Assembly (NCBI GenBank): GCA_041658665.1
Contig: JBAZZR010000002.1
Span: forward strand, 137,147 to 201,146
Length of the DNA: 64,000 bases
Reading direction: 5' to 3'
From: Patescibacteria group bacterium
Lineage (GTDB): Bacteria > Patescibacteriota > Patescibacteriia > Patescibacteriales > UBA12465
Shown here one piece after another: positions 805-37,042 of the stretch; position 1 is the stretch's first letter, and every line of letters starts with the position of its first letter. A program made the translations under genes and the position numbers. Under the pieces are notes generated by a model. It was given only the letters and a program-made list of their open reading frames with translations, had not been told where the DNA came from and did no database searches.

Positions 805-834
805 TTGACTAAAAACTAAGCTTAAGTTTATAAT
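805..834 (+). promoter_or_regulatory. Sigma70-type promoter for the tRNA-Gly/tRNA-Thr pair
   Basis: TTGACT (805-810), 18-nt spacer, TATAAT (829-834), about 22 nt upstream of tRNA-Gly. Both hexamers are near consensus. Confidence 0.5.
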
Positions 835-856
835 GATTAAAGTCGGGAATAATAAG

Positions 857-928
857 GCGGGTGTTGTATAATGGTTATTACGTCAGCTTCCCAAGCTGAA
901 GACGGCGGTTCGATTCCGCTCACCCGCT
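857..928 (+). tRNA. tRNA-Gly (anticodon CCC)
   Basis: Manual cloverleaf: acceptor GCGGGTG/CACCCGC, anticodon stem TCAGC/GCTGA with loop TTCCCAA, T arm GGCGG-TTCGATT-CCGCT. No CCA is encoded. Confidence 0.9.
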
Positions 929-947
929 CTTTCTAGACTTTAAATTC

Positions 948-1020
948 GCCGAGATAGCTCAGCTGGTAGAGCAACGCATTCGTAACGCGTAGGTCAGGGG
1001 TCCGAATCCCCTTCTCGGCT
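948..1020 (+). tRNA. tRNA-Thr (anticodon CGT)
   Basis: Manual cloverleaf: acceptor GCCGAGA/TCTCGGC, D arm GCTC-AGCTGGTA-GAGC, anticodon loop TTCGTAA, T arm AGGGG-TCCGAAT-CCCCT. No CCA is encoded. Confidence 0.85.
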
Positions 1021-1033
1021 CACTTTGAATTTT

Positions 1034-1462
1034 TTATTTAAAAAAATATCGCCACCACTTCAGCAGATTACTACTAATATCATTAGTAGCGCTATCGTTC
1101 AGATCGCTGGCCTGATTTTTTTTGTTATCAATAACAATAACGGCTTCACCCGGTTTTTTTAGATTCAAGTTTAAACGAGCCTGCTCCTCTAATGATTGTT
1201 CCGACTGTAAATAGAGAACTAAATCTCTCAGCTCTTGGTTTTTCTTTTCCGATTCACTAATTTGTTGCTCAACATCTTTAATTTCTTTTTCTACTAATAA
1301 GCGTTGGCTATACGTCCTGGCTAGAGGGAACATAATCGCCACTAGAAAAATCAAACCAATCATAGCTAAAAAACGCTGGCTAGACACTAGGCGATAAAAA
1401 AATCCTGGTTGGGTTGATCCGCCGATCCGCGTAATCTGCGAATGCATCTTAGATTTAGACAT
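1034..1462 (-). CDS. FtsB/DivIC-like septum formation initiator (single TM helix plus coiled coil)
   Basis: 142 aa. TM helix FLAMIGLIFLVAIMFPL is followed by a coiled coil (LLVEKEIKDVEQQISESEKKNQELRDLVLYLQS) and EEQARLNLNLKKPGE, the usual FtsB/DivIC layout. Confidence 0.6.
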   Translation of the reverse strand: MSKSKMHSQITRIGGSTQPGFFYRLVSSQRFLAMIGLIFLVAIMFPLARTYSQRLLVEKEIKDVEQQISESEKKNQELRDLVLYLQSEQSLEEQARLNLNLKKPGEAVIVIDNKKNQASDLNDSATNDISSNLLKWWRYFFK

Positions 1463-1541
1463 TTAATCTCATTATAGCAAACAAAAATCCCGCCGTGTAG
1501 TAGCGCGAGATCTAACCTAAAATAAATTTAATTGATAAAAA

Positions 1542-3134
1542 TTATCGAGACTTTGGTGTAACCCAAAACCCCATATACTTACCGGCCATTAATCTAATCT
1601 GGGCATCCAAACAAGGCACCGAACCAAAAATTATAATAATCACTGGAACGGCGACCCATTCTAAAGTCATAAAAATCTTTTTCCAAAATCTCTGCCGCTT
1701 CGGCGGGCTCGGTAGCAATAAAGCCGAAATAAGCGCTGAGAGAACTAAACCAATCATAGCGATATTCATCAAATTCTGAGTAACCGAGGGTAAATTACCG
1801 GATAAAACTGTTGAATTAAAACGGTCGCCACCGAATAAAAGCGGCAGCCAGCCAATCACGGCAATTATTAAAGCATTAGTCGCCCAAGCATAGAAACCAT
1901 AAATCTGAATAAAAATATGACTAAGGACTCGCCGGCGATCTAAGCCGGGATTATTCCAGCGTTTCGCTGAATTAAAGATTAAATAAGGAATATTTTCGCC
2001 ACCCCAAGCCCAGCGGCGCTGTTGTCGGTAGAGACTTTTTGCGGTTTTCCAAAAAGTTTCATCATGAGTTATATCCATCGATACCTCATAATTAATTGGC
2101 TCGACTCGATAACGAGTATTATAATACATAAAACAATGCCAAAAAATCCGAGAATCTTCAGAAACGTTAGTCGTAGACCAAAAATCAATTTCGACTAAAG
2201 CACGCCAAGTCATGGAGTGGGAAGAATAGGTAACTAAGCTTTCTTCACGTATTTGCATGATCATCTGCCAAAAAGTATTAGAAGAGGCCGCTACGCGCGA
2301 AAAAAATGGCGCCTGCCAAATATTATTTTGATAAACTGGAACAGGCTGATAACTAGCGTGATAAGGATCGCGAACGCTTAAAAATTTATAAGATAAGGCA
2401 AAAAAGTAGCCAGGCTTTACTACTGTATCAATATCAAAAACGCTAACTAGAATTTTCCCATAATCGATATTCTCGGCATCAATAATTTTCTCTTTAACTA
2501 CTCGAGAGGCCCAAGCCTGATTAGCTCCCTTACCTTTTAACTCTCCCACTAAGCCATCGGGATGAAAAGTAACGATTAATCGACCAAACTTATCGCTAAA
2601 TTCCTGCTCGATCAAAGAGGCTTTAAGATGCGCTTCTAAACCAGCTCGTTCCTCCATCGCTACCGCCACAATCATTTGAGAGGCCGGGAAACCATCATTA
2701 AGTAGCGCCCGCAAAGAAGTATTGATAATTTCGCTGCTTTCATTAAAAGTCGGTAAAACAATCAAATGATATAAATCGGGCCAAGCTAATCCTTGTTTCG
2801 CTAAAGAGTCGAGGGGAAGATCTGCCCCGATTTTCTTATTTTTTAGATCTTCACATTTTTCCCGCCAGTTGGTTTTTAAACCAAGACGCAAACGATGATA
2901 AGAAGTAATTAAAAAAATCGCCATGTAAACGACTAGAAGTAACCAATAAATATCAAAGGCGATAATAAAATAAGCTACCCAGACGGGCTGGAAATAAGAT
3001 AAAACTGATAAAATAAGCAAAGAAGATAAAGAGAGAAACCCGGGTAATATTTCTAATAATCGATATATTTTATAATCACGACCCGATAAATCCGAGGCTT
3101 TGCCAATTCTTAAATAATTAATAGTCTGACTCAT
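1542..3134 (-). CDS. Integral-membrane family 2 glycosyltransferase, processive (cellulose/chitin-synthase-like) type
   Basis: 530 aa. N- and C-terminal TM helices flank a GT2 core. It has an acidic FDIDT motif and a Q-x-x-RW-like motif (YRQQRRWAWGG). Confidence 0.7.
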   Translation of the reverse strand: MSQTINYLRIGKASDLSGRDYKIYRLLEILPGFLSLSSLLILSVLSYFQPVWVAYFIIAFDIYWLLLVVYMAIFLITSYHRLRLGLKTNWREKCEDLKNKKIGADLPLDSLAKQGLAWPDLYHLIVLPTFNESSEIINTSLRALLNDGFPASQMIVAVAMEERAGLEAHLKASLIEQEFSDKFGRLIVTFHPDGLVGELKGKGANQAWASRVVKEKIIDAENIDYGKILVSVFDIDTVVKPGYFFALSYKFLSVRDPYHASYQPVPVYQNNIWQAPFFSRVAASSNTFWQMIMQIREESLVTYSSHSMTWRALVEIDFWSTTNVSEDSRIFWHCFMYYNTRYRVEPINYEVSMDITHDETFWKTAKSLYRQQRRWAWGGENIPYLIFNSAKRWNNPGLDRRRVLSHIFIQIYGFYAWATNALIIAVIGWLPLLFGGDRFNSTVLSGNLPSVTQNLMNIAMIGLVLSALISALLLPSPPKRQRFWKKIFMTLEWVAVPVIIIIFGSVPCLDAQIRLMAGKYMGFWVTPKSR

Positions 3135-3137
3135 AGT

Positions 3138-3731
3138 TTAAAAGGCTCCCCTCTTTTTTAACTCAAAAAAGCATTCAGCGCAAGCCCGGACGTCAAAAAC
3201 CGCGTCATGGGCTTCCGGAAAACCATCTTTAAATAAATGCTTATATAACTCCGTTAAATTAGGCCATTTATAGCCCCCGCGCGGGCTAGGAATCTTACAA
3301 TAAGGAGCGCTCAATTTCATCGTGCATATTTTATTAACTAATGGGAAAGGACTCGACAATTTTAATCGTAAAATCTCTGAACCAGTTATTTTCTCATCGA
3401 AATCAATATTATGAGCCACTAAATTAGAAGCGCTCAACGCTTCGCTAATAAAGTGCTCTAAAGCTAAAGATAATTCTACTCCCTCCCGTAGCGCTCTAGC
3501 TTGAGAAATGCGATGAATTTTAGTGGCTTCTTCGGGAATAACAAAACCTTGCGGCTTAATAATATAGCTATGACTTTCCCAATGATGTCCGTCATTATCA
3601 TAAAGACTCCAGGCTAATTGGACGATTCGAGGCCAATTAGAAAAATCATCAAGCGGAGCTTGATAATTCTTGGGTAACCCCGTAGTTTCTGTATCAAAAA
3701 ATAAATACATAAAACCCAAAAATAATTTCAA
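3138..3731 (-). CDS. DEDDh 3'-5' exonuclease (DnaQ/epsilon-like)
   Basis: Exo I FFDTETTG, Exo II AHNIDFDEK, Exo III HDAVFDV. The ORF overlaps the upstream stop by 4 nt. An alternative start at M8 (3710) is possible. Confidence 0.8.
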   Translation of the reverse strand: MKLFLGFMYLFFDTETTGLPKNYQAPLDDFSNWPRIVQLAWSLYDNDGHHWESHSYIIKPQGFVIPEEATKIHRISQARALREGVELSLALEHFISEALSASNLVAHNIDFDEKITGSEILRLKLSSPFPLVNKICTMKLSAPYCKIPSPRGGYKWPNLTELYKHLFKDGFPEAHDAVFDVRACAECFFELKKRGAF

Positions 3732-5641
3732 AAATTATGATCAAGAGTAAATTCTTCTCCTTCCTTCATCTCCTGCTCTTCAGGCCCCTCTCCCTTTTCC
3801 TGGCTAGAAGAAACGGGAGCGACCGGCGCTGGAGCAGGTGAAATTTTAGCATTCTTGTCTAACTTAATTTCTCGCCCTCGAAAATCTCGAGGCGTTAAAC
3901 TTTTTAAATCATTCAAGGATAAGGAAGGAGTAGGCGTCACTTTATTAAAATTAGTTAATGACTGGCGTTCGACTTCTTTAGCTAAATGACGCTTCTCGAG
4001 CTCTAAGCGCTTTTCTTCCTTCTTCTGGCTCAAACATTCTCGACAATAGACGGGACGAACGCCATCCGGCTTAAAAATAGTGCTAGTTTCTTTACCACAA
4101 CTCGCGCAACTAGCGCTATAACCACTTTTTACCTGACGACTGGCTACTGGCCTCTGATTAGCCGCTACGTTAGTATTCTTGGGCTCGCTAGGCGCTGTCT
4201 GATAGACTGGAGGGGGGGGCGCTATTTTTGAACTAGGAACTGATGAAGGGGTTATTTTCTGACTCGCTGTTAACGACGAATTAGCCTGATTATTGCCCGA
4301 AACAGCTAGAGGAGCCTGACCCGTCGAAGAAACCATTTTTTTAAACGAAGCATCATCATCGGCACCATAATTATCGTGCCAGCTCATAATTTTCTCTTCA
4401 ACGGTTTCGCGATCGGAGGCATATTTTTCGCGCGAATAGTTAATAACCTTTTCCACATTACCTGTCTGCTCCTCTTCGCTAAGCGGCGGCAGACCGGCGG
4501 CTGAAAAAGGGGATGAAGAAATTCCATCAATCATTAATTTAAGATACATTTCATATTTTGGCAAATTGACTAAGTCTTCTTCCGTAAAAGTCGGCGTGAA
4601 TTCTTTCACTAATTCTTCCGCATCAGCCGCGCCGACGCGGAAGACCACCATCGTGCCGACATTACCAAAAACAGCCGGCTTTACTTTTTCACTCAACTGT
4701 TCGATATACTGATGAGCTAGAATCAAATTCAAACGATATTTACGCGCTTCTGATAAAATATTAGCAAAACTATCGGTCGAAAAATTTTGAAATTCATCAA
4801 TATATAAATAAAAATCCCGCCGCTCTTTTTCCGGTACATCAACCCGGCTCATGGCGGCCAACTGAATTTTAGTAATCATCATCGCGCCTAAAAGGGCTGA
4901 ATTATCCTCGCCAATCCGCCCTTTCGACAAATTCATGATTAAAATCTTACCATTATCCATAATATCCCGAATATCAATCGTCGACTTAACTTGACCAACA
5001 ATATTTCTCATTAAAGAATTGGATAAAAATTGACCGACTTTATTCTGAATCGGGGAGACCGCTTCCGAAGCAAACTTATCAGCGTAACCAGAAAATTCCT
5101 TTTCCCAAAAAGCTTTAACAACCGGATCTTTAATATTAGCGACGACCCGTTTACGATAATTTTTATCCGATAACATCCGAACAACTCCTAAAAGAGTCGA
5201 ACCCGGAAAATCTAAAATCGCTAAAATAGCATTACGTAAAATATATTCCAAGCGAGGGCCCCAAGAATCAGCCCAAAGTTTTTGAAAAACGCCAATCAGA
5301 CCCGAAGCGACTAGATGCCGCAAATGAGATTCAACTTGTTCGACGACGTTAAAGGCAATCGGGTGATGGATGTCGGAAGGATTAAAATAGACCACATCGT
5401 TAATCCGATTACTAGGAATATATTCGATTATTTTTTCTGCTAAATCACCATGCGGATCGACGACAGCGACGCCGTGACCAGCGCGGATATCATCGATAAT
5501 CATATTCTCTAAAATCGTCGATTTACCCATACCGGTCTTCCCAATCAAATACATATGCCGACGACGATCGTCAGTTTTAATTCCGAATCTTTTTGATTCA
5601 TTACGAAAAGTTGTTTTAGCGAAGACAGCAATATTATCCAT
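3728..5641 (-). CDS. Soluble FtsK/HerA/VirD4-TraD-superfamily P-loop ATPase (T4SS coupling-protein-like) with a C-terminal 4-Cys zinc ribbon
   Basis: Walker A GKTGMGKST, Walker B FYLYIDEFQNF, no TM helices. A Ser/Pro/Ala-rich linker leads to CASCGKETSTIFKPDGVRPVYCRECL and then a charged tail. Confidence 0.7.
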   Translation of the reverse strand: MDNIAVFAKTTFRNESKRFGIKTDDRRRHMYLIGKTGMGKSTILENMIIDDIRAGHGVAVVDPHGDLAEKIIEYIPSNRINDVVYFNPSDIHHPIAFNVVEQVESHLRHLVASGLIGVFQKLWADSWGPRLEYILRNAILAILDFPGSTLLGVVRMLSDKNYRKRVVANIKDPVVKAFWEKEFSGYADKFASEAVSPIQNKVGQFLSNSLMRNIVGQVKSTIDIRDIMDNGKILIMNLSKGRIGEDNSALLGAMMITKIQLAAMSRVDVPEKERRDFYLYIDEFQNFSTDSFANILSEARKYRLNLILAHQYIEQLSEKVKPAVFGNVGTMVVFRVGAADAEELVKEFTPTFTEEDLVNLPKYEMYLKLMIDGISSSPFSAAGLPPLSEEEQTGNVEKVINYSREKYASDRETVEEKIMSWHDNYGADDDASFKKMVSSTGQAPLAVSGNNQANSSLTASQKITPSSVPSSKIAPPPPVYQTAPSEPKNTNVAANQRPVASRQVKSGYSASCASCGKETSTIFKPDGVRPVYCRECLSQKKEEKRLELEKRHLAKEVERQSLTNFNKVTPTPSLSLNDLKSLTPRDFRGREIKLDKNAKISPAPAPVAPVSSSQEKGEGPEEQEMKEGEEFTLDHNF

Positions 5642-5937: not shown

Positions 5938-6696
5938 TTAACGGACTTCACATAATTTAACATATTTTCGACCAATGGTCGCTAAACCCTGCATCTCTAA
6001 ATCAGAATAGGCTTGTTTAGACTTATAATCACTGTTGACTAATTCCGTATCCGACTTAAATTTCTGCAAATACCATTTTCCCGCGCCTCTAATTAGGCGC
6101 CCCATTTGGTTAAAATCATCGGCTTGCAAGAGATCGGGGACAACCGTCGTTCGAAATTCATAAGGCAAGCCACTAGACATTACTATTTTAACACTTCTCC
6201 GTAAATTATTACAGTTAATAGGTACCCCGACAACCGCTTCATATTTAGTGAGCGGGGCTTTTAAGTCCATGGCGATATAGTCAATTAGTTTATCTTTAAT
6301 TAATTTTTCTACCATAACTGGATTGGTACCATTAGTGTCTAACTTAACTAAATAGCCCATGTCCTTAATAGTAGAAATAAAAAAAGGCAGGTCGGGGTGT
6401 AGGGTCGGCTCCCCGCCAGTGATGACTACTCCCTCTAAACGACCGAATCTTTCCTGTAAAAAAAGAAAAAGGTCATGGACAGATAGTGGAGAAAGACCTT
6501 TTTCTTTTTTATCGTCGAGCGAACCAGCGCCGGCGACATCAATAATATTTTTTTCGTCCGTTCCCTGACGGGGCCAGACAAGCATAGGGTTATAACAAAA
6601 ATGACAACGAAAATTACAGCCCTGGGTAAAGATAATCGCCGCTAAGTGATCGGGGTAGTCTAGGAGAGTTAATTTCTCCAAGCCACCGATTATCAT
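5938..6696 (-). CDS. nrdG: Anaerobic ribonucleoside-triphosphate reductase activating protein (radical SAM)
   Basis: CNFRCHFCYN radical-SAM cluster motif, GGEPTL SAM-binding motif, and a position directly downstream of nrdD. Confidence 0.9.
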   Translation of the reverse strand: MIIGGLEKLTLLDYPDHLAAIIFTQGCNFRCHFCYNPMLVWPRQGTDEKNIIDVAGAGSLDDKKEKGLSPLSVHDLFLFLQERFGRLEGVVITGGEPTLHPDLPFFISTIKDMGYLVKLDTNGTNPVMVEKLIKDKLIDYIAMDLKAPLTKYEAVVGVPINCNNLRRSVKIVMSSGLPYEFRTTVVPDLLQADDFNQMGRLIRGAGKWYLQKFKSDTELVNSDYKSKQAYSDLEMQGLATIGRKYVKLCEVR

Positions 6697-6708: not shown

Positions 6709-6846
6709 TTAATTATTAGTCTGATAAGTCTTACGGTCAACGTACTCAGACGCTTTACCGGGATTCCAATTTTTAGTCGGTGTCAGCCAACCAACAACTC
6801 GGCTATAAACGACACATTCCTGTCTTTGAGTTTGAATTGGGCTCAT
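6709..6846 (-). CDS. Uncalled 45-aa ORF carrying the class III RNR glycyl-radical motif (detached NrdD C-terminus)
   Basis: My translation: MSPIQTQRQECVVYSRVVGWLTPTKNWNPGKASEYVDRKTYQTNN*. YSRVVG(Y/W)..P...WN.GK is the NrdD radical loop as I recall it. The ORF is in a different frame from nrdD, starts 44 nt after its TAG and ends 12 nt before nrdG. Confidence 0.7.
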   Translation of the reverse strand: MSPIQTQRQECVVYSRVVGWLTPTKNWNPGKASEYVDRKTYQTNN

Positions 6847-6890
6847 ATATTTATTATTATAAATTAAAAATATTTAAATTACAAATAGTT

Positions 6891-8972
6891 CTAGCTCCGA
6901 ACATTTTTATCCTCAACCTCTACTTTATTCTCGACTTCCACTCCCATTACGCTTTCTTTATATCCAATTTCTTCGTCACATTTCGGACAAAATCTATGTT
7001 CCCCAGATAAATAACCGTGTTTAGGACAAATAGAGAAGGTCGGAGTAATCGTAAAATAAGGCAAACGATAATTCTCAACAATTTTTTTCACTAATTTTTT
7101 AGCGGTATCGCCATTAGATAGCCTTTCTCCTAAGAAACCATGCAAAACTGTGCCGCCCGTATATTTAATTTGTAAATCATCTTGTAAATCCAGGGCGGAA
7201 AAAATATCATCAGTGAAGTTAACGTGTAAATGTGAGGAGTTAGTATAATAAGGAGCAGCTCCTTTATTTTGGCACGCCTCGGTATTGGCACAAATAATTC
7301 CTGGATAGAGCTGCTGGTCTTTTTTAGCAAAACGATAAGTACAACCTTCTCCTGGAGTAGCTTCTAAATTATATAAATTATTAGTTTCATTTTGAAAATC
7401 CATTAATTTTTCCCGCATAAAATCCAAAATTTCACCAGCAAACTTATGGCCTTCTGGGGTAGAAACATCTTTACCCATTAAATTCATAGCCGCTTCATTC
7501 ATGCCATTAATACCGATAGTCGAAAAATGATTTTTCCAATAAAAACCAAAATGGGCTTTAATATTATCTAAATAAAACATGGAGTAAGGATAAAGATGAT
7601 CGTCCGTAAACTTTTCAATTATTTTGCGTTTAATTTCTAAACTTTCCTTAGCTAACTCCATTAAATATATTAAACGTTTTTTAAATTCTTCTTGGCTTTT
7701 TGATAAATAGCCTAGGCGCGCCAAATTAATAGTCACGACCCCTAAAGAACCAGTTAACGGATTAGCGCCGAAAAGGCCGCCACCGCGCTTGCGTAACTCA
7801 CGGTTATCAAGTCTTAAACGACAACACATCGAACGCGCGTCATCACGCTTCATATCGGAGTTAACAAAATTAGAAAAATAAGGAATACCATACTTGGCCG
7901 TCATCTCCCAGGCCGGCTTAAGACACTCCCTATCCCAATCAAACTCTTTATCAACATTATAGGTAGGAATTGGAAAACCAAAGACGCGACCCGTCGAATC
8001 CCCAGCCAACATAACTTCGGCGAAAGCTTGATTAAACATATCCATTTCTGCTTGAAAATCCTTGTATTTTTCCGGCATTATAGCGCCCCCAATAATAACA
8101 CTCTCTTCACCTAAAAGCGGCGAAGGAATAACATCTAAAGTAACATTAGTAAAAGGGGTCTGAAAACCAACTCTAGTAGGGACATTAACATTAAACATAA
8201 ACTCCTGCAGGCCCTGCTTAACATCTTTATAACTTAAATTATCATAACGAATAAAAGGTGCTAAATAAGTATCAAAATTAGCAAAAGCTTGTGCCCCAGC
8301 CGCCTCGCCTTGCATCGTATAGAAAAAATTAACAATTTGCCCTAAAGCACTTCTAAAATGTTTTGGGGGAGCGCTTTGGACCTTTTCGTCAACCCCTCGA
8401 AAACCTCGAATTAATAGATCTTTCAAATCCCAACCGCAACAATATGGAGCTAGCAGCCCTAAATCATGGATATGAAAATCACCATTAGTATGAGCGACCC
8501 TAATATTTTCTGGGTACATTTTATTTAGCCAATAACGAGCAGAAATCGAAGAAGCAATATAATTATTAAGTCCTTGAACAGAAAAACTCATATTACTATT
8601 TTCTTTCAAACGCCAGTCCGCTCGACCCAAATAATCTTCCATTAATTTATCGTCCGATGTCGCTTTACCAATATCACGTAATTGACGATGTTGATCGCGA
8701 TATAAAATATAGGCTTTAGCGATTTTGATAAGCTTATTGCTAATCAGTACTTCTTCGACTATATCCTGAACCTCTTCAACGGCCGGAATACTATTTTTAT
8801 GAAATTTTTGATTAAGTTCTAAAGACGTCTGGTCGGCTAACTTCTTAGCAAAATGTCGATCATCAACTCCGACCGAAAGAGCAGCTTTATAAATAGCCTT
8901 ACTAATCTTAGCTAGATCAAAGTCAACAATTTCTCCAGATCTTTTAATTAATTTCTTGATAGTCTCCGACAT
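6891..8972 (-). CDS. nrdD: Anaerobic (class III) ribonucleoside-triphosphate reductase large chain, lacking the glycyl-radical motif
   Basis: N-terminal ATP-cone, SMCCRLRLD active-site loop, LPYFTITPTFSICPKHGYLSGEHRFCPKC zinc site. Twenty-eight non-conserved residues (including VEVENKVEVEDK) follow before TAG. Confidence 0.9.
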   Translation of the reverse strand: MSETIKKLIKRSGEIVDFDLAKISKAIYKAALSVGVDDRHFAKKLADQTSLELNQKFHKNSIPAVEEVQDIVEEVLISNKLIKIAKAYILYRDQHRQLRDIGKATSDDKLMEDYLGRADWRLKENSNMSFSVQGLNNYIASSISARYWLNKMYPENIRVAHTNGDFHIHDLGLLAPYCCGWDLKDLLIRGFRGVDEKVQSAPPKHFRSALGQIVNFFYTMQGEAAGAQAFANFDTYLAPFIRYDNLSYKDVKQGLQEFMFNVNVPTRVGFQTPFTNVTLDVIPSPLLGEESVIIGGAIMPEKYKDFQAEMDMFNQAFAEVMLAGDSTGRVFGFPIPTYNVDKEFDWDRECLKPAWEMTAKYGIPYFSNFVNSDMKRDDARSMCCRLRLDNRELRKRGGGLFGANPLTGSLGVVTINLARLGYLSKSQEEFKKRLIYLMELAKESLEIKRKIIEKFTDDHLYPYSMFYLDNIKAHFGFYWKNHFSTIGINGMNEAAMNLMGKDVSTPEGHKFAGEILDFMREKLMDFQNETNNLYNLEATPGEGCTYRFAKKDQQLYPGIICANTEACQNKGAAPYYTNSSHLHVNFTDDIFSALDLQDDLQIKYTGGTVLHGFLGERLSNGDTAKKLVKKIVENYRLPYFTITPTFSICPKHGYLSGEHRFCPKCDEEIGYKESVMGVEVENKVEVEDKNVRS

Positions 8973-8974
8973 AT

Positions 8975-9433
8975 TTATTTTTTTTCATTAATTAGCTTAT
9001 TCAGTTCTTTTCTAAACTCATGAGCATCCTTAAAAGATTCATAAACGGAAGCATAACGAATATAAGCGACGGGATCGATTTTTTTCAAATTTTTCATCAC
9101 CATTTGGCCAATTTGTCGAGAGGTTACTTCCGCACTTTTTAAACGCTGTAAATCTCGCTCAATGGAATGAATTAATTTTTTAAAACGATCTTCGGTAATT
9201 GGCCTTTTCTCGCAAGATTTCTTTAGACCGCTAACCATCTTCTCACGATTATAATTTTCCCGGCGACCATCACGTTTAACAATAACTAAGTCTAAAAGCT
9301 CTATTTCTTCATAGGTAGAAAAACGAAAACCGCATTTTAAACATTCGCGGCGACGGCGAATAGATAATCCATCAGGCGCCACTCGAGAATCTACTACTTT
9401 CGTATCCAAATAGTAACAAATCGGACACTTCAT
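8975..9433 (-). CDS. nrdR: Transcriptional repressor NrdR (zinc ribbon plus ATP-cone)
   Basis: MKCPICYYLDTKVVDSR...RRRRECLKCGFRFSTYE is the canonical NrdR N-terminus, followed by an ATP-cone. Confidence 0.95.
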   Translation of the reverse strand: MKCPICYYLDTKVVDSRVAPDGLSIRRRRECLKCGFRFSTYEEIELLDLVIVKRDGRRENYNREKMVSGLKKSCEKRPITEDRFKKLIHSIERDLQRLKSAEVTSRQIGQMVMKNLKKIDPVAYIRYASVYESFKDAHEFRKELNKLINEKK

Positions 9434-9600: not shown

Positions 9601-9634
9601 AATTAAAAGGCTGTCTATTTTCCAATAGACAGCC
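9601..9634 (-). terminator. Rho-independent terminator after the 308-aa orphan gene
   Basis: Perfect 11-bp stem GGCTGTCTATT/AATAGACAGCC with a 4-nt loop, followed on the minus strand by TTTTAATTTT. It lies 13 nt after the stop. Confidence 0.7.
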
Positions 9635-9646
9635 TCCAAGAAAGTT

Positions 9647-27837: not shown

Positions 27838-30800
27838 CTAATAAAGGCCTTCAAGATTTCTAAAGATATAACATCGGTTGGTCCAATTAAAGGGCTGGGA
27901 ACAAGAATAGGAGTAACGACAGCGATTATTTTCTGTCTTTTGACAGGTCTTAACCACCCCGCTCGCATCTCGATAGTCGACCGCACAAAAAATATTATTA
28001 GTGGGAGGATTACAAGACATTCGACTATCAACTAAAATTTTTCCTTTAAACCACTGCGCACCCGAACGCAGCCAACTATCAGAACATTCTAGAACATTAT
28101 TAGAATCAACGTTCAGTTTTACCCAACAAGGCGTCCCGCTAGAAGTCAAAGAATCCGTAATAGTATCCCGCGGAATCTCCAACCAATAATTAAGATCACG
28201 CTGACAATAGGCAGTATTATAACCAGAAAAATTACTATTACAAGAAGCTGACCCATTAAAACCGTTTGGAGCGCCCAGCGCTTGGCCGCAAGAAATATCA
28301 TCCGCACAACAATTAAGCAATAGACAACCCGGAGTCGCTAAGCTAGAACAACCTTCCTTCAAAGACACTTGGCATTTTAATTCGGCAGATTTTTGACTCT
28401 CATTATTACTGGCATCAAGCGCGGTTAGGGCGAAATAATGTTTACCAACCGCAAATTTATCCGCAGAAAAAGTTTTCAATAAATCTTTCGCGGTAAAAGA
28501 CTCGGCATATTTACCAGAATTAATACCCCGTAATAATTTATAAGCAACAGCGTCATTAGTAGCCGGCCAGGTGAAGAGAATAGAATTACCGGAAACTTGA
28601 GCCTGTGGTCGACTAGGAGCGGCCGGCGCCGTCTGGTCGGTTGGTGTAACCGTTTTCTCATTAGATAAGCTACTTTCCGTACGATTACTCGATATAACAC
28701 TGACCTTAAAAATATAAGGAATATTATTAGTGAGCTGATTAATCGACGCCTGACAATTATTAACACCACCCGATAAAGTACAGACTGCCGAAGAAGCAAA
28801 TTCTAAAAAGAGCATATTCGAATCACCGGCTGGTAAATAGTATATTTTATAAGCCGAGACATCGGCCGCCTTAGAGCGCCAATTTATTTGAACCGTTTGG
28901 CCAACCCCCGTATCACTAACACCCACTAAATCGGATCCCGGTAAAATAGCCTCCCGGAAAAAATAGGACTCTTTCAAAACGTTCCAAATACAAAGTCCAT
29001 CTAAATTACCGTCGCCATTAGTATCGGCGCCACAAAGAGTATTAATATTAGAACAAGGTTGACGGTCAACACTACAGACTAGATTGCTGCTATTACCGCG
29101 AATAACCGCCTGATCAATGATCGCTGGTAAATCATCAAGCGTTCCAGCCGCTCCCGCGTCCCGACAATAATAAAATTTATAATTATAGTTCCCACAGTTA
29201 GGATCCAAAGAGCCCTGGCAAGTATCAACCCAAGGAGACCAACTCCCTGATGACTTAATCGGCGGCCACGGATTATTACAAAGAAAAATATAGATATCGC
29301 TAGACACGCTGGAATTACGTCCCTGAAAATAACTATTACAACATTTTTGTGGACAATTATCGCCTTGGCAAGAACAGGCGCCGCTATTACAACCCAGGGA
29401 AAAACGATCCATCTTAACTTCGGCTTTAACTTTAGTTTCAGCATCACTTATTCCCGTTTTAACACTCACTAAAATTTTATTCGGCTCTAAACCGGTGGCT
29501 GGAGCCAGGGTCGCTAAGTTCGGATTATTAACGGTGAAGTTCCAATCCCAAAAGTATCCCGTTACCGGTCTTAATAGCTGATCGTCTTGACTATAGGCCG
29601 CGGCGGCAAAAACTTTATCACGATCGGCGACCGAATCAAAAGTCGCCGCTGCCGAATTATTATCATCTTCATTCAAATCATTATCAGCCGTTTTAAAAAG
29701 ATAAGATTCCGGACTCAACTGAACCTTATCAATAGCACAAAGGCCGGAATTAGAAGCCGCCGACATGGTCGAGAATTTAATAATCTGTGAATTCTTATAA
29801 CTACGGTTATTAAACATAATCGATTCTCCGGCCACATATAAACTAGTTTCCGCATTAAAATAGCCTAAACCATTAAAACCAATTTTAGCTGAACTTAAAA
29901 CTCCAGTTTGACTATTTAAACTCGCATCGCCAAGAACAATAAAATAATAATTAGTCGCCGGGTCAAGAAGACTCTGGGGAGTGAAAATTAAAGACGTCTG
30001 ATTATTACTATCTTCTCCCGACACTGTCCCTGGCACCGCACAATATAATTTATTAGAATCCGGAACATCGGCTAAAGCAGTTGTACCGAAATAATTTACT
30101 ATTTTTTTAAAGACAGATTTAACGCTAGACCAACTAAATAAACTATTTTTCGATGCCGCCGCTAATCGTCCGCTGATTAAATCATCCGCGGCAGCAAAAG
30201 TACCCTCCGGACAAGGGCCATTACTATAATCTTTCTCGGCCAATAATAAGACATTATTACTAAAACTCGTAATGGACATCGGCTGATCAAAATTTACTTT
30301 AATCGCCGCGTTTCGACAGACTTGCTGCGCTAAATGATAAGGGGAAGTAGGAGAAACTATATTCGGACGAGCCTGACAACAGGTATCTGATCCACAACCG
30401 ACTAAAGAAGTCGAATCGCAATCATTATCACTAGAACAACCACAACATAAACCACGATTAGCTCCTGCGCAACTGCCTCGGTTAGGCTCACATTTTAATT
30501 TAGAATTAAGCACCGTACAAGCATCATTAGCCGTGCCGGGTTGGCAACAACAAGTGCCACAATCCGGCGGCGTCGAACCAAATAAACCGTTGGATAATAA
30601 ACAAGCAAAACCCGGAAAATTACATTGACTGCTCGCACAAGTTGAAGTAGCCAGCCCGCCACAATACACGCCAGCCCCACTAGGCGGGTTAGTACAAGCA
30701 CTAGAACAAGAGTTAGTATTCTGGTATTTTCCATCTTTAACCGGATTAGCGGAGTCACAAGTAGTTGAACCGCCCGTATTTTTACAATTATAATAAGCAC

Positions 30801-33800
30801 AGTAGCCGGCATCAATATGGGAAGAATCAGTAATCTGCGCGCCTAAACGACAAGCCGTATTAGGGGCGGCTAGTGACTCCGTCACTAATTTTGAAAAAAA
30901 TTTTGAAGAATATCCGGTCGATAATGGCGCTAGATCTTTCATCGACGCTACTTTCCCGTCGAAACAACAACGACTATTTTTAGTACATTCCACAAAATCA
31001 GTAATACCCGAACAAGGATCAGATTTAGCACAATTATCAGTACAACTCTGAACGTTAGTATAATCACCAATTTTAACCGGGGTCGAGGAGGCGCATTTAG
31101 CGGGATCCCCCGGCGGCGTAGATGCCGGACTCTGACAATTATAATAAGCGCAATAACCGTAACCAGGTAAAGTAGAAGAGGCGGTAATTTGCTGCCCATT
31201 GCCGCCGACACAAATATCATCAGCGCTAGTTGCAGTTTTTCTTGAGTCAAGACAACAGGCACTACTATGACTAGTACAGTCTTGCCCGTTTAAACTAGAA
31301 CAATCCGAACAGACGCCACGAGGAAAATCTGGAGTGATATTACAAAATTGACCGCTATGACTAGAACAATTACAGGCAGCATCGCGCTCTTCCGGCGTAT
31401 CACCCGCGGCCGCGCAACCACCGCATTTACCTAAACCAGAATTAGTCCCATTTGGTCCATCGGTTATACTTTTATCGCTACCGCAAGTTCCCTCGCAGCT
31501 AAGCTGTCCTATCGTTCCTGACTTAGTTTTATAGGAACAACAATCCTGGGCATCTCGACCAATCGTGCAACAACAATCGCAAGTAGGTTGATCTATTTTA
31601 ACGCAGCTGTCTCCTTTATTATCATAATTAGATTTACAGCTAGCTCCCGACTGACAAAGTTTAGGCGAAAAACAACGACCCACGCCAGAAAAAGAAGTAC
31701 AACTTAGACCATCAACACAAAGAGAACAGTTAGAATTTGGATCAACACATTGATCATTAGGGGTTCGAAGCCAATTATCCGGACAGGAAGATTTTAAAGT
31801 TATCTGCCAATGTTTTTCCTGATTACAAATAGCGGTGCTAGAAGCAGCGACAGGGCTAGAAGCAGTCACTGTATAGTTAACAACCGTCGGCAGGCTACAA
31901 GATCCAGTCCGCTCTAAACACTGATCAAGGGAATTATTATAAACACACCGATTACTGCTACAACCCGGCAAAGAATTACAAGTATAATCGCAGGGGCCGA
32001 TAATTTGACCGCCGCCGCCAGCATAAGGCGAACAAGTGCCCGGAGTATTCGGGCAAGAAGATCCGGTCTGGCAAGAGCCATAATATTGAGCCAAGCCAGC
32101 ACAACTATAATCATAAGGATTAGGAGTAGAAGTTCCGAAACCGGTGTCAAAACTCCATTCAAAAACAGAAGTCGGAATATCAATAAAACACTGATCTAAA
32201 CTATTAACACAACGCCCTTTCTTATAGGTATTAGCCGGGCAACAAATCTGTAAGCCGCAATCAGAATTAGCGATACATTCACCAACAGAGAAATTTAATT
32301 CATTACCCGCCTCATTTTTTTTAATTACCTTAACGGGGCCGGTAATAGAACTAGTAGCCACCGTCGTTTTAATAGAATTCGCTCGACCCGTTTGCTCAAT
32401 AGTTCCAGTCGCTGACCGCTCATAATTAAATTTAACTAAAGCTTCACTTTTAAGCGGACCAAAATATTCGCCCCAAAGAAGAACCGGCGACCCGATTGGA
32501 CCACGAGTCGGCTCTATTTTACATAAACTAGGTTTCAAATCTAAATTTTTATTAAATTTAAAAAAATTAGGAGTTAAACTAGTAATATCAATAGTAGTCG
32601 TACCAAATTTAATCTTAATCCCATATTCATCGGTACTTATCAACGCGGGGACCTTAACGATAATCTGATTATTATTCCAAACCGAATTAGCACAAACCTC
32701 TGGAAAATCATAAGAGGCTTCAGTCGAAGTTGCCCCGCTATAAAAATAAACTTGGCTCAAGCCGCGTAAATTACCAAAACCGCTTCCTTTAATAGTCACA
32801 TACTGACCAACATTACCACTTAGCGGGCTGAAGGAAGAAATAAAGGGGCCCGTCTCCTTTTCTGGATTTTTAACAAAACGTAAATAATTACTCTTTAAAT
32901 TAATATTATTTTTTACAAAACTACTAGAATCACCAGGTTTTATATTCGGTATTGTCGAGGTTCCTGATAAACCGTTAGAATTAGTAAACTGAGAATTTAA
33001 ACCAGAAATATTATTCTGATAATTACCGAAATAAGCCGTTCCCGAGTAGAGATTAATCCCCTGATAATTAACCGCCGAACTCAAAACTCCTCTTAAAGGA
33101 CTAAGATTACATAAACCGGGACGTTTAATATTATTAGCAATAAAATCGGGTATTTTCGGCCCATAATCATCGTTAGTCGCTTCAGTCGCACTATCTTTCG
33201 TCACAACCCAAAGCGGTCCGGCCGGCGCCCCATCTGGTACGGCGATAATAATTTCGTCATCGCGCCAGGTCTGGATACAATTAGGATTTAAAACCTGAGG
33301 ATCTAACCCTACTTTAGCGTTACTACCATTTCCAAAAAAAGCAACTGCCGAAGTCGCGGCGGAATATTCTCCAAAATTTTTACCAAAAATTGTAATGAAA
33401 TTATTGGCAGTACCATTAGGATCGGTTAAATTACAATTAGTACTACAGTCTTCATCTCGACTACAAGCTTTATTTTTATCTTCTTCGCAGAAGCCGCCAA
33501 CAGGGCTAACTTCGGTAATAACCGGCGGACCGTAGCAGGTACAAGTACTAGGATTACAAGTTAAATATTGGGCGCAACGATTATTATCCGGCGAGCAAGT
33601 TGGATTACTACTAGCATTACAGGAATCGCCTAAGTTTCCCTTAGGTTTACAACTGCAATCACCACCATCGCAATAATCTTGAGCGGCACAAATTTGATTA
33701 AGCGCCTGGCAACCCGGATTAGGACTGGAGTCACAACTAGCGGGTGGCGCAATAATACCACCGCAATCCGAACCAATACAGGAACCAAAAGATCCTCCGC

Positions 33801-34233
33801 CACAAATCATCGAACCGCCACAACCGCAAGAGCGAGTTTCTCCTTCATAACAAGTATTGCCTCCCGTCGTTGCTCCCATTAGCCGAGAAATGATAAAAGT
33901 AGCAATCGCCCAAGAAGATAAAATAATTACTAAACCAATTACGCCATTTTTTAAAATACTCCTAGCTGTCCTAATTTTTTCTTCATCGCCGCCGGAGACC
34001 AACCATAAAAATCCCGCATAAGCGATAAAGCCTAGAGCAATTACTCCTAAAAATCCTAAACCAATATTGATGATTCGACCGGCTAAAATTCTTGGTTCAC
34101 TAGAACTTAATGAACCGCCTAAACCGTTCCCAACAGCATTCAAACCAAAATTCTGAGCTAAGACTTGCTGCGCCACTAAAAAACCTAGGCCTAATAAGAT
34201 AAAAACTAACCAATTTTTTATTATTTTTTTCAC
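27838..34233 (-). CDS. Giant (2131 aa) cysteine-rich surface protein with a VirB2/TrbC-pilin-like N-terminal membrane module, IPT/TIG, Big_5-like and FN3 domains
   Basis: GTG start. N-terminal ~125 aa: signal peptide plus 2 TM helices with YAGFLWLVSGGDEEKIRTARSILKNGVIGLVIILSSWAIATFII. Three IPT-like units (PVITEVSP..ITIFGKNFG; FISSFSP..VTIKGSGFG; KIEPTRGP..LLWGEYFG). More than 100 Cys by my count. FN3-like segments near the C-terminus. Confidence 0.9.
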   Translation of the reverse strand: MKKIIKNWLVFILLGLGFLVAQQVLAQNFGLNAVGNGLGGSLSSSEPRILAGRIINIGLGFLGVIALGFIAYAGFLWLVSGGDEEKIRTARSILKNGVIGLVIILSSWAIATFIISRLMGATTGGNTCYEGETRSCGCGGSMICGGGSFGSCIGSDCGGIIAPPASCDSSPNPGCQALNQICAAQDYCDGGDCSCKPKGNLGDSCNASSNPTCSPDNNRCAQYLTCNPSTCTCYGPPVITEVSPVGGFCEEDKNKACSRDEDCSTNCNLTDPNGTANNFITIFGKNFGEYSAATSAVAFFGNGSNAKVGLDPQVLNPNCIQTWRDDEIIIAVPDGAPAGPLWVVTKDSATEATNDDYGPKIPDFIANNIKRPGLCNLSPLRGVLSSAVNYQGINLYSGTAYFGNYQNNISGLNSQFTNSNGLSGTSTIPNIKPGDSSSFVKNNINLKSNYLRFVKNPEKETGPFISSFSPLSGNVGQYVTIKGSGFGNLRGLSQVYFYSGATSTEASYDFPEVCANSVWNNNQIIVKVPALISTDEYGIKIKFGTTTIDITSLTPNFFKFNKNLDLKPSLCKIEPTRGPIGSPVLLWGEYFGPLKSEALVKFNYERSATGTIEQTGRANSIKTTVATSSITGPVKVIKKNEAGNELNFSVGECIANSDCGLQICCPANTYKKGRCVNSLDQCFIDIPTSVFEWSFDTGFGTSTPNPYDYSCAGLAQYYGSCQTGSSCPNTPGTCSPYAGGGGQIIGPCDYTCNSLPGCSSNRCVYNNSLDQCLERTGSCSLPTVVNYTVTASSPVAASSTAICNQEKHWQITLKSSCPDNWLRTPNDQCVDPNSNCSLCVDGLSCTSFSGVGRCFSPKLCQSGASCKSNYDNKGDSCVKIDQPTCDCCCTIGRDAQDCCSYKTKSGTIGQLSCEGTCGSDKSITDGPNGTNSGLGKCGGCAAAGDTPEERDAACNCSSHSGQFCNITPDFPRGVCSDCSSLNGQDCTSHSSACCLDSRKTATSADDICVGGNGQQITASSTLPGYGYCAYYNCQSPASTPPGDPAKCASSTPVKIGDYTNVQSCTDNCAKSDPCSGITDFVECTKNSRCCFDGKVASMKDLAPLSTGYSSKFFSKLVTESLAAPNTACRLGAQITDSSHIDAGYCAYYNCKNTGGSTTCDSANPVKDGKYQNTNSCSSACTNPPSGAGVYCGGLATSTCASSQCNFPGFACLLSNGLFGSTPPDCGTCCCQPGTANDACTVLNSKLKCEPNRGSCAGANRGLCCGCSSDNDCDSTSLVGCGSDTCCQARPNIVSPTSPYHLAQQVCRNAAIKVNFDQPMSITSFSNNVLLLAEKDYSNGPCPEGTFAAADDLISGRLAAASKNSLFSWSSVKSVFKKIVNYFGTTALADVPDSNKLYCAVPGTVSGEDSNNQTSLIFTPQSLLDPATNYYFIVLGDASLNSQTGVLSSAKIGFNGLGYFNAETSLYVAGESIMFNNRSYKNSQIIKFSTMSAASNSGLCAIDKVQLSPESYLFKTADNDLNEDDNNSAAATFDSVADRDKVFAAAAYSQDDQLLRPVTGYFWDWNFTVNNPNLATLAPATGLEPNKILVSVKTGISDAETKVKAEVKMDRFSLGCNSGACSCQGDNCPQKCCNSYFQGRNSSVSSDIYIFLCNNPWPPIKSSGSWSPWVDTCQGSLDPNCGNYNYKFYYCRDAGAAGTLDDLPAIIDQAVIRGNSSNLVCSVDRQPCSNINTLCGADTNGDGNLDGLCIWNVLKESYFFREAILPGSDLVGVSDTGVGQTVQINWRSKAADVSAYKIYYLPAGDSNMLFLEFASSAVCTLSGGVNNCQASINQLTNNIPYIFKVSVISSNRTESSLSNEKTVTPTDQTAPAAPSRPQAQVSGNSILFTWPATNDAVAYKLLRGINSGKYAESFTAKDLLKTFSADKFAVGKHYFALTALDASNNESQKSAELKCQVSLKEGCSSLATPGCLLLNCCADDISCGQALGAPNGFNGSASCNSNFSGYNTAYCQRDLNYWLEIPRDTITDSLTSSGTPCWVKLNVDSNNVLECSDSWLRSGAQWFKGKILVDSRMSCNPPTNNIFCAVDYRDASGVVKTCQKTENNRCRYSYSCSQPFNWTNRCYIFRNLEGLY
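33893..33939. repeat. 47-nt near-identical DNA segment, copy 1 (within the 2131-aa gene pilin-like module)
   Basis: ATAAAAGTAGCAATCGCCCAAGAAGA[T]AAAATAATTA[C]TAAACCAAT differs at 2 positions from 36656..36702. Confidence 0.85.
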
Positions 34234-34248
34234 AAATTTTAAAAAATT

Positions 34249-36996: not shown

Positions 36997-37033
36997 GAAA
37001 ACAAAACAAAAAATTTTTAAATTATCGCCCTTA

Positions 37034-37042
37034 TGCTATAAT
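37034..37042 (+). promoter_or_regulatory. Extended -10 element (TGCTATAAT) for relA/spoT-like gene
   Basis: TGnTATAAT match 48 nt upstream of ATG 37090. It lies in the 93-nt divergent region shared with the surface-protein block. Confidence 0.35.

Follow-up and report, generated by a model that had tools for sequence, protein, structure and literature searches.

How does an anaerobic ribonucleotide reductase (RNR) work when the loop for its glycyl radical is missing from the catalytic chain? The question is posed by a locus in a 64,000-nt stretch of DNA from a Patescibacteria group bacterium (GenBank assembly GCA_041658665.1, contig JBAZZR010000002.1, forward-strand positions 137,147 to 201,146; the whole stretch is called the window here), where the class III RNR gene nrdD runs to its stop codon without a radical motif and a separate 45-residue open reading frame (ORF) carrying that motif lies between nrdD and the activase gene nrdG. 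An earlier note, made from the letters of the window, had offered a two-chain enzyme, translational bypassing and a decaying gene as explanations. Judged on comparative sequence evidence, the split is real and conserved and most likely functional as two chains, and the locus very probably encodes an obligate two-chain class III RNR whose radical-bearing chain is made separately.

Division of NrdD between two reading frames

In ordinary NrdD, the radical hairpin and a C-terminal helix come after the zinc site on the same chain. The large ORF of the window (6891..8972, minus strand; 693 aa, stop codon TAG at 6891-6893) matches PF13597, TIGR02487 and NF006126, the last at 1022.6 bits. It has an ATP-cone (residues 7-96), the SMCCRLRLD loop (residues 381-389; 7806..7832, minus strand), which is the SCCR motif of T. 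maritima-type NrdD, and a zinc-site segment CPKH-x9-CPKC (C649...C665; 6978..7028, minus strand) that is invariant in alignment A3. The last Cys codon occupies 6978-6980, and the chain ends ...FCPKC(665)-DEEIGYKESVMGVEVENKVEVEDKNVRS-TAG. The 28 residues from zinc site to stop are made up of a DEEIGY motif abutting the last zinc-site Cys (6960..6977, minus strand), conserved in the split clade only, and an unconserved tail of 22 residues with a VEVENK/VEVEDK repeat (6894..6959, minus strand). A 44-nt AT-rich intergenic gap (6847..6890, minus strand) is followed by the small ORF (6709..6846, minus strand; stop codon TAA), which reads MSPIQTQRQECVVYSRVVGWLTPTKNWNPGKASEYVDRKTYQTNN and comprises the loop YSRVVGW and a C-terminal helix. 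The codon for its Gly19 lies at 6790-6792, and an in-frame TAA stands upstream at 6874-6876. The radical SAM activase gene nrdG (5938..6696, minus strand; TIGR02495 NrdG2, 7e-60) starts 12 nt past the small-ORF stop codon. Re-reading of the minus strand and the ORF listing bore out the earlier coordinates of nrdD, small ORF, gap, Cys and Gly codons and stops. The small ORF had been described as uncalled, which does not hold universally: the ENA record of the source contig calls it, with a PF13597 match.

The family models divide cleanly across the two ORFs, in agreement with the earlier claim that the radical loop sits on a separate 45-aa ORF. Of the 562 positions of PF13597 (NRDD), the large ORF covers 1-532 (E 1.6e-180, 601.9 bits) and the small ORF 530-562 (E 2.2e-7, 30.4 bits against a cut-off of 26.2). 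TIGR02487 (581 positions) divides into 1-549 for the large ORF (507 bits) and 549-580 for the small one. On T. maritima NrdD (4COI), the alignment of the large ORF spans residues 103-610 and that of the small-ORF profile 616-645; phmmer with the 45-mer against PDB sequences gave no match, a profile being needed to reach 4COI. With the models divided in this way, the cut falls after the zinc site and before the radical loop. The sole Pfam match of the small ORF is NRDD (PF13597) and NCBIfam gives NrdD models only; no Pfam, NCBIfam or PHROG family is devoted to the mini-protein. Of the features of a class III NrdD, the catalytic barrel, the zinc site and the adjoining nrdG are present with the large ORF, and the radical loop on the same chain is absent; no radical motif occurs anywhere in the large ORF. 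The window has neither another radical motif nor another NrdD, and its large ORFs include no further RNR, as the earlier note had said in calling this the only RNR seen there.

The two sequences are also compatible with the canonical class III fold, as judged from a predicted structure. MAFFT misplaced the small peptides and aligned the radical loops of fused homologues onto the tail, and therefore a re-fused construct was modelled with AlphaFold2 (AF2), consisting of large chain 1-668 and small chain 8-45 aligned with 60 fused relatives. The model reached a predicted local distance difference test score (pLDDT) of 77.4 and a predicted template modelling score (pTM) of 0.77. Its small-chain part, with pLDDT of about 80, forms a beta-hairpin (673-678/681-684) with the glycine at the tip and a helix (690-698). 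The known structures closest to the model as a whole are class III RNRs, from S. thermophilus, P. copri, T. maritima and T4 (template modelling score 0.6-0.75). A low-confidence stretch right after the SMCCR motif (384-406) corresponds to the segment that follows the SCCR motif of T. maritima NrdD and is disordered in its crystal structure (PMC4493059). P. copri NrdD has a highly mobile radical domain, made up of the zinc site, the buried Gly loop and a surface tail (PMC11226230), and the NrdD radical domain is expected to exit the barrel for activation (PMC4493059); a detachable version is therefore physically plausible.

Conservation of the split and rival explanations

A large-chain scan of one genome per GTDB species gave 80 loci, 75 of them fully analysable; counts of loci below refer to these 75. 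The closest relatives of the locus are from Falkowbacteria and other Patescibacteria. The split is present in every locus, with large chains 64-88% identical to that of the window, and the radical motif YSR[VI]xG[WY] invariably lies in a short stop-to-stop ORF apart from the large ORF. With the 45-mer as query, a word-indexed search found 51 protein clusters of 34-72 aa, all matching PF13597 and 59-93% identical. The mini-gene is kept beside nrdD and nrdG throughout the split clade; in relatives nrdG usually starts 4-21 nt past the small ORF and sometimes overlaps it. Ratios of non-synonymous to synonymous substitution rates (dN/dS, Nei-Gojobori) are 0.13 for the small-ORF core, 0.07 for the last 36 large-chain codons up to CxxC and 0.41 for the tail past DEEIGY. 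The split-clade consensus after CPKC is DEE[IML]G[YF] (D in 75 loci, E in 70, E in 73, I/M/L in 71, G in 74, Y/F in 72); it is absent from fused relatives and may help to dock the small chain. The whole stretch past CPKC measures 8-50 aa in relatives, and its tail part is unalignable.

Recoding of the T4 gene 60 type, by bypassing, or by frameshift or readthrough, would rejoin the ORFs into one chain, and the earlier note had been led to bypassing by the layout AGC-TAG followed 44 nt on by ATG-AGC. That layout is present in the window and in the window only: the last large-ORF codon equals the codon after the ATG in 1/75 loci, the window itself. In about 60 loci the second small-ORF codon encodes Ser (AGC or AGT), and the AGC pair is a coincidence because the peptide starts Met-Ser while the last large-ORF codon varies freely. 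Neither the conserved matched codons nor the defined gap of about 50 nt that mark gene 60 bypassing are found in the split clade, where the large-ORF stop and the conserved ATG lie about 4 to 290 nt apart (median 88), the frame offset is 0, 1 or 2 in 32, 26 and 17 loci, and the stop codon is TAA in 55, TAG in 19 and TGA in 1. Of the features that the earlier note had proposed to compare among relatives, the frame change and the AGC pair are not conserved, and the type of stop codon varies. Where the frames do agree, at least two stops separate the ORFs in 30 of 32 loci. What is conserved is the start of the small ORF, with an ATG 10-14 codons 5′ of the conserved Cys in 75/75 loci and an MS start in 58; sequence conservation begins at this ATG, with none upstream, and mean GC content is 21% in the gaps and 42% in the small ORFs of relatives. 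A locus of the split clade, L165, even has a different gene order (nrdD, nrdG, then a 53-aa mini-protein of YSRVVGF type; 823-5162). Its 1076-aa nrdD product contains an intein with a LAGLIDADG domain and ends right past CPKC (...CPKCDAENSFLK*), and with nrdG between the pieces no ribosomal mechanism could join them. With a promoter in the gap as well (described below), recoding is left with next to no probability; on these patterns the small ORF is an independent gene. No more credence is due to gene decay, or to an assembly or sequencing error, for which the split itself speaks and nothing more: the same architecture recurs in 75 independent assemblies and hundreds of protein clusters, both parts are under purifying selection and the catalytic motifs are all intact.

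The sigma-70-type promoter found in the gap by a promoter scan (6856..6884, minus strand; 10/12 matches) consists of a -35 box TTGTAA (6884-6879), a 17-nt spacer and a -10 box TATAAT (6861-6856). Since the -10 box ends 9 nt 5′ of the small-ORF ATG, a leaderless or near-leaderless mRNA is predicted. The motif TTGTA[AT]-N17-TATAAT occurs in the gap of 27/75 loci, with a spacer of 17 nt every time, compared with 0.5 +/- 0.7 motifs (maximum 4) in shuffled gaps; in the other loci with it, 8-21 nt or 44-88 nt separate the end of the -10 box from the ATG. As the mini-gene of this sub-clade has its own promoter in the gap, it is probably co-transcribed with nrdG, in addition to read-through from nrdR-nrdD.

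Two further explanations accept two ORFs and differ in what becomes of their products. The chains might be joined post-translationally by a split intein or a ligase, and inteins do lie within some homologous large chains (P0118, L165, L140). Neither ORF of the window matches an intein family in Pfam, however, and there is no space for split-intein halves of roughly 100 + 35 aa: the tail is 8-50 aa long and unconserved, and the small chain reaches its conserved core after about 10 residues. Joining is accordingly very improbable. Somewhat less remote, yet still improbable, is a large chain that needs no peptide because its radical is drawn from elsewhere, which would make the mini-protein an optional spare or regulator. 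In its favour are the orphan mini-genes of viruses whose hosts have fused NrdD, ANMV-1 being an example, which make spare-part use plausible elsewhere. Against it, the radical loop is absent from the large chain in 75/75 split-clade loci, nrdD and nrdG have the mini-gene as a neighbour across the clade, and no radical-independent class III RNR is known. As the large chain is without a radical loop, the mini-protein would be an obligate subunit, not a spare.

The obligate two-chain enzyme thus agrees best with the comparative evidence, and the two-chain model is the one of the three earlier explanations to have gained from it, bypassing and decay having been set aside. Several points weigh against it. 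We infer translation of the small ORF, association of the chains and a radical on Gly19 from sequence, and the RNR census covers the window, which is part of an 822-kb metagenome contig. The promoter motif is limited to 27 loci, and a Shine-Dalgarno-like motif 5′ of the small ORF is rare (10/75 loci), a scarcity that a leaderless transcript would explain. AF2 prediction of the true concatenation, with a shallow alignment of 29 close homologues, gave a pLDDT of 47.5, and the better model is an artificial single chain that carries no information on non-covalent affinity.

In the two-chain enzyme as we picture it, ATP-cone, zinc site and a ten-stranded barrel bearing the SCCR cysteine loop would belong to the large chain (693 aa), while the Gly19 beta-hairpin and the short C-terminal helix would come from the 45-aa chain. 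The small chain would be the substrate of NrdG, which would take a hydrogen from Gly19; its hairpin would sit within the barrel of the large chain, and the radical would then move to the active-site cysteine, as in fused enzymes. Oxygen cuts T4 NrdD, E. coli NrdD and pyruvate formate-lyase (PFL) at the radical glycine. Because cleavage falls there, a speculative benefit of the split is that only 45 residues, and not a 700-aa enzyme, would have to be replaced after it. A bolder version, which we hold to be somewhat less likely than not, makes the 45-aa chain a free, exchangeable cofactor that NrdG charges off the enzyme, that docks and is replaced after oxygen cleavage, with viral copies keeping the host reductase charged. 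If true, this would be the first spare-part or cartridge system outside PFL and the first obligate cartridge among glycyl-radical enzymes.

Some features of the two chains stand beside this scheme as separate observations. Cys11 of the small ORF (6816-6818), three residues before YSR, is conserved in 90% or more of the mini-proteins, and fused relatives have it too (CEVYSR). It could be a metal ligand bridging the two chains, as the first zinc-site pair here is CPxH and not CxxC. In some sub-clades the large-chain tails end in Cys (...ERCSTC, ...NNPTCC, ...NCSEC, ...SCCES) and so do the C-termini of the small chains (...ACSE, ...ENSCC, ...CSSCEE, ...KQFC); such chains occur at L038-L043, L046, L051, L052, L054 and L070, and the window copy has none. 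Cysteines at both C-termini might form a shared metal site or a redox shuttle. The metagenome-assembled genome CAYGLM01 contributed two nrdD loci (L020 and L023, 84% and 84-85% identical to the window), which could reflect strain mixing in the bin or a real duplication.

Fused relatives and stand-alone mini-proteins

The nearest fused NrdDs found (L159, L162) are 60% identical to the large chain. They belong to a group of fused proteins of 696-698 aa (P0325-P0444) that is spread over Marinimicrobia, Cloacimonas, Coprothermobacter, Thermotoga, ANME archaea and Altiarchaeota. Fused NrdD of the T. maritima type (NF006126/PRK08270; about 60% identity) shares the ATP-cone, SCCR loop, zinc site, radical loop sequence and nrdG partner with the window; the difference lies at the junction, where the window inserts DEEIGY, the tail, the stop, the promoter of the gap and a second start codon, whose ATG opens a stretch of about 10 residues. 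The fused junction is CPKC-GSH-CEVYSRVVGY on one chain, whereas the split junction runs from CPKC through DEE[IML]G[YF], the unconserved tail, the stop and the gap to M-SPIQTQRQE-C-VVYSRVVGW. A neighbour-joining tree of large chains (77 split, 42 fused), rooted at the midpoint, is without bootstrap support and hence indicative; it gathers 76 of the split chains, including L165, into one pure clade. The remaining one, L157, is a divergent outlier and may represent an independent split.

One candidate origin for the tail was a degenerate relic of a duplicated radical domain. The small-chain profile (hmmsearch) scored the 75 tails at a median of -1.9 and shuffled tails at -1.6; with no radical-domain similarity in the tail beyond that of shuffled sequence, an origin by duplication and decay is unsupported. 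Inteins are present in several large chains of about 1000-1100 aa (P0118, P0122, P0127, P0399, L140, L157 and L165; PF14890 where a domain match was recorded), so the gene family has repeatedly been invaded by mobile elements. The activase shows variation of its own: NrdG of the window has an insertion at residues ~38-66, past the CX3CX2C cluster motif, relative to NrdG of the fused clade. Its length varies, being long in L079 and short in L063 and L165, and showed no clear link to the nrdD split.

Beyond the clade, a profile search of 1.84 billion cluster representatives yielded 4242 matches at E <= 1e-3, of which 421 reached E <= 1e-10. The 150 top-ranking representatives are all 47-115 aa long and nearly all Met-initiated. 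By this count of sequence matches, stand-alone mini-proteins of the NrdD type are very common. Some of them have a CxxC...CxxC zinc ribbon before the loop. Proteins of 94-145 aa consisting of zinc ribbon and loop, with the cut upstream of the zinc site, include P0212, P0279, P0295, P0302, P0311 and that of the archaeal virus ANMV-1 (KP703175.1; L164, 3686-4120), a 144-aa coding sequence holding zinc ribbon and radical loop only. Its annotation in ANMV-1 is that of a full anaerobic RNR, and the protein has been taken as a sign that the virus encodes an RNR (PMC4372165).

Viral genomes hold many such genes on their own. Among 80 IMG/VR loci, 70 have a mini-ORF and no NrdD catalytic core within 4 kb, 2 have a window-like split and 4 a fused nrdD. 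The viral orphan mini-ORFs (those 70 of the IMG/VR loci L084-L163, and L167, L082 and L083) encode 43-136 aa, with neither an NrdD core nor nrdG within 4 kb. One of the mini-proteins (L158) is 76% identical to the window peptide and its gene adjoins a tail-fibre gene; another mini-ORF (L167) sits between the small terminase and portal genes. Viral contigs that carry the mini-gene alone make sense only if the mini-protein acts in trans. The viral mini-genes may be auxiliary genes that supply the radical chain to the reductase of the host, and by analogy their products look like NrdD counterparts of T4 Y06I and YfiD.

Genomic setting, known systems and meaning

The nrdD ORF is preceded by the gene for the repressor NrdR (8975..9433, minus strand; zinc ribbon PF22811 3e-20, ATP-cone PF03477 9e-20), directly 5′ of nrdD on the same strand. 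A strong terminator-like hairpin of 14 pairs (9606-9637, minus strand) lies just upstream of two promoter-like sites before nrdR (9579-9550 and 9541-9513); hairpin and sites probably indicate where the nrdR-nrdD transcription unit begins. FtsZ/FtsA genes are located upstream of the operon, and GyrA, ArgRS, SecDF and RelA are encoded elsewhere in the window. Directly downstream is a gene for a 637-aa TraG/TrwB-like coupling protein with a C-terminal zinc-finger region (3728-5641, minus strand), and 27841-34248 and 34252-37035 (both minus strand) hold a 2136-aa ORF and a 928-aa ORF with a type IV secretion system pilin domain. The coupling-protein gene and these two ORFs may belong to a Patescibacteria-type system for type IV secretion or a conjugation-like process.

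Among known systems, the closest in possible working are GrcA/YfiD of E. coli and Y06I of phage T4, which like the window peptide are small stand-alone homologues of a C-terminal radical domain. In both cases activation by the cognate activase and completion of the barrel in trans would be expected, and phage copies exist in both systems. The earlier comparison with GrcA/YfiD was therefore apt as to how the peptide might work. It does not extend to family or role: GrcA/YfiD is a PFL radical domain of about 127 aa and the window peptide a 45-aa NrdD domain (PF13597), and the parent enzyme of GrcA/YfiD keeps its radical domain, which makes the small protein a backup that takes over once oxygen has damaged that domain, whereas the large chain here has no radical loop and the peptide would be obligate. 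Class I RNR (NrdA + NrdB) likewise stores its radical off the catalytic chain, but NrdB is a metallo-protein without homology that relies on long-distance radical transfer, whereas the radical loop of the window would insert into the barrel directly.

RNR catalytic subunits encoded as two ORFs are otherwise known from phages, namely nrdA-a/nrdA-b of Aeromonas phage Aeh1, nrdJ-a/nrdJ-b of Thermus phage phiYS40 and fragmented phage nrdD genes; the Aeh1 nrdA pair reportedly was shown to function as two chains in the original study. Most of these phage splits are caused by introns, inteins or homing endonucleases, and they fall within the catalytic core; in no described case is the radical loop set apart on a 45-aa chain, and none is clade-wide in cells. 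A survey of phage RNRs attributes split nrdD to introns, inteins or unknown fragmentation, and the window arrangement is absent from it (PMC3653736). A 2026 review reports spare parts for formate lyases only and leaves the matter undetermined for other glycyl-radical enzymes (PMC13450708). No split cellular NrdD or NrdD spare part is described in the papers and family libraries searched, which mostly leave subscription journals uncovered.

The finding bears on this open question of the glycyl-radical field. In a large bacterial clade, an essential RNR, the only one within the window, has its radical loop on a separate 45-aa chain. Glycyl-radical enzymes are, to our knowledge, described as single chains that bury the radical glycine, with YfiD/GrcA as the sole known exception. 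Annotation is affected too: the large chain is routinely labelled as a complete NrdD, and the mini-ORF is missed or named as a full reductase; one small-ORF homologue goes by 'anaerobic ribonucleoside-triphosphate reductase' at NCBI. That the chains work in trans is the central inference, and it is biochemically cheap to check. If they do, the 45-mer would be a natural minimal activase substrate, radical installation and docking would become separable for study, and the viral mini-genes would constitute a new class of viral auxiliary gene. The same arrangement would offer one explanation for the upkeep of oxygen-sensitive reductases in ultra-small bacteria at oxic-anoxic boundaries.

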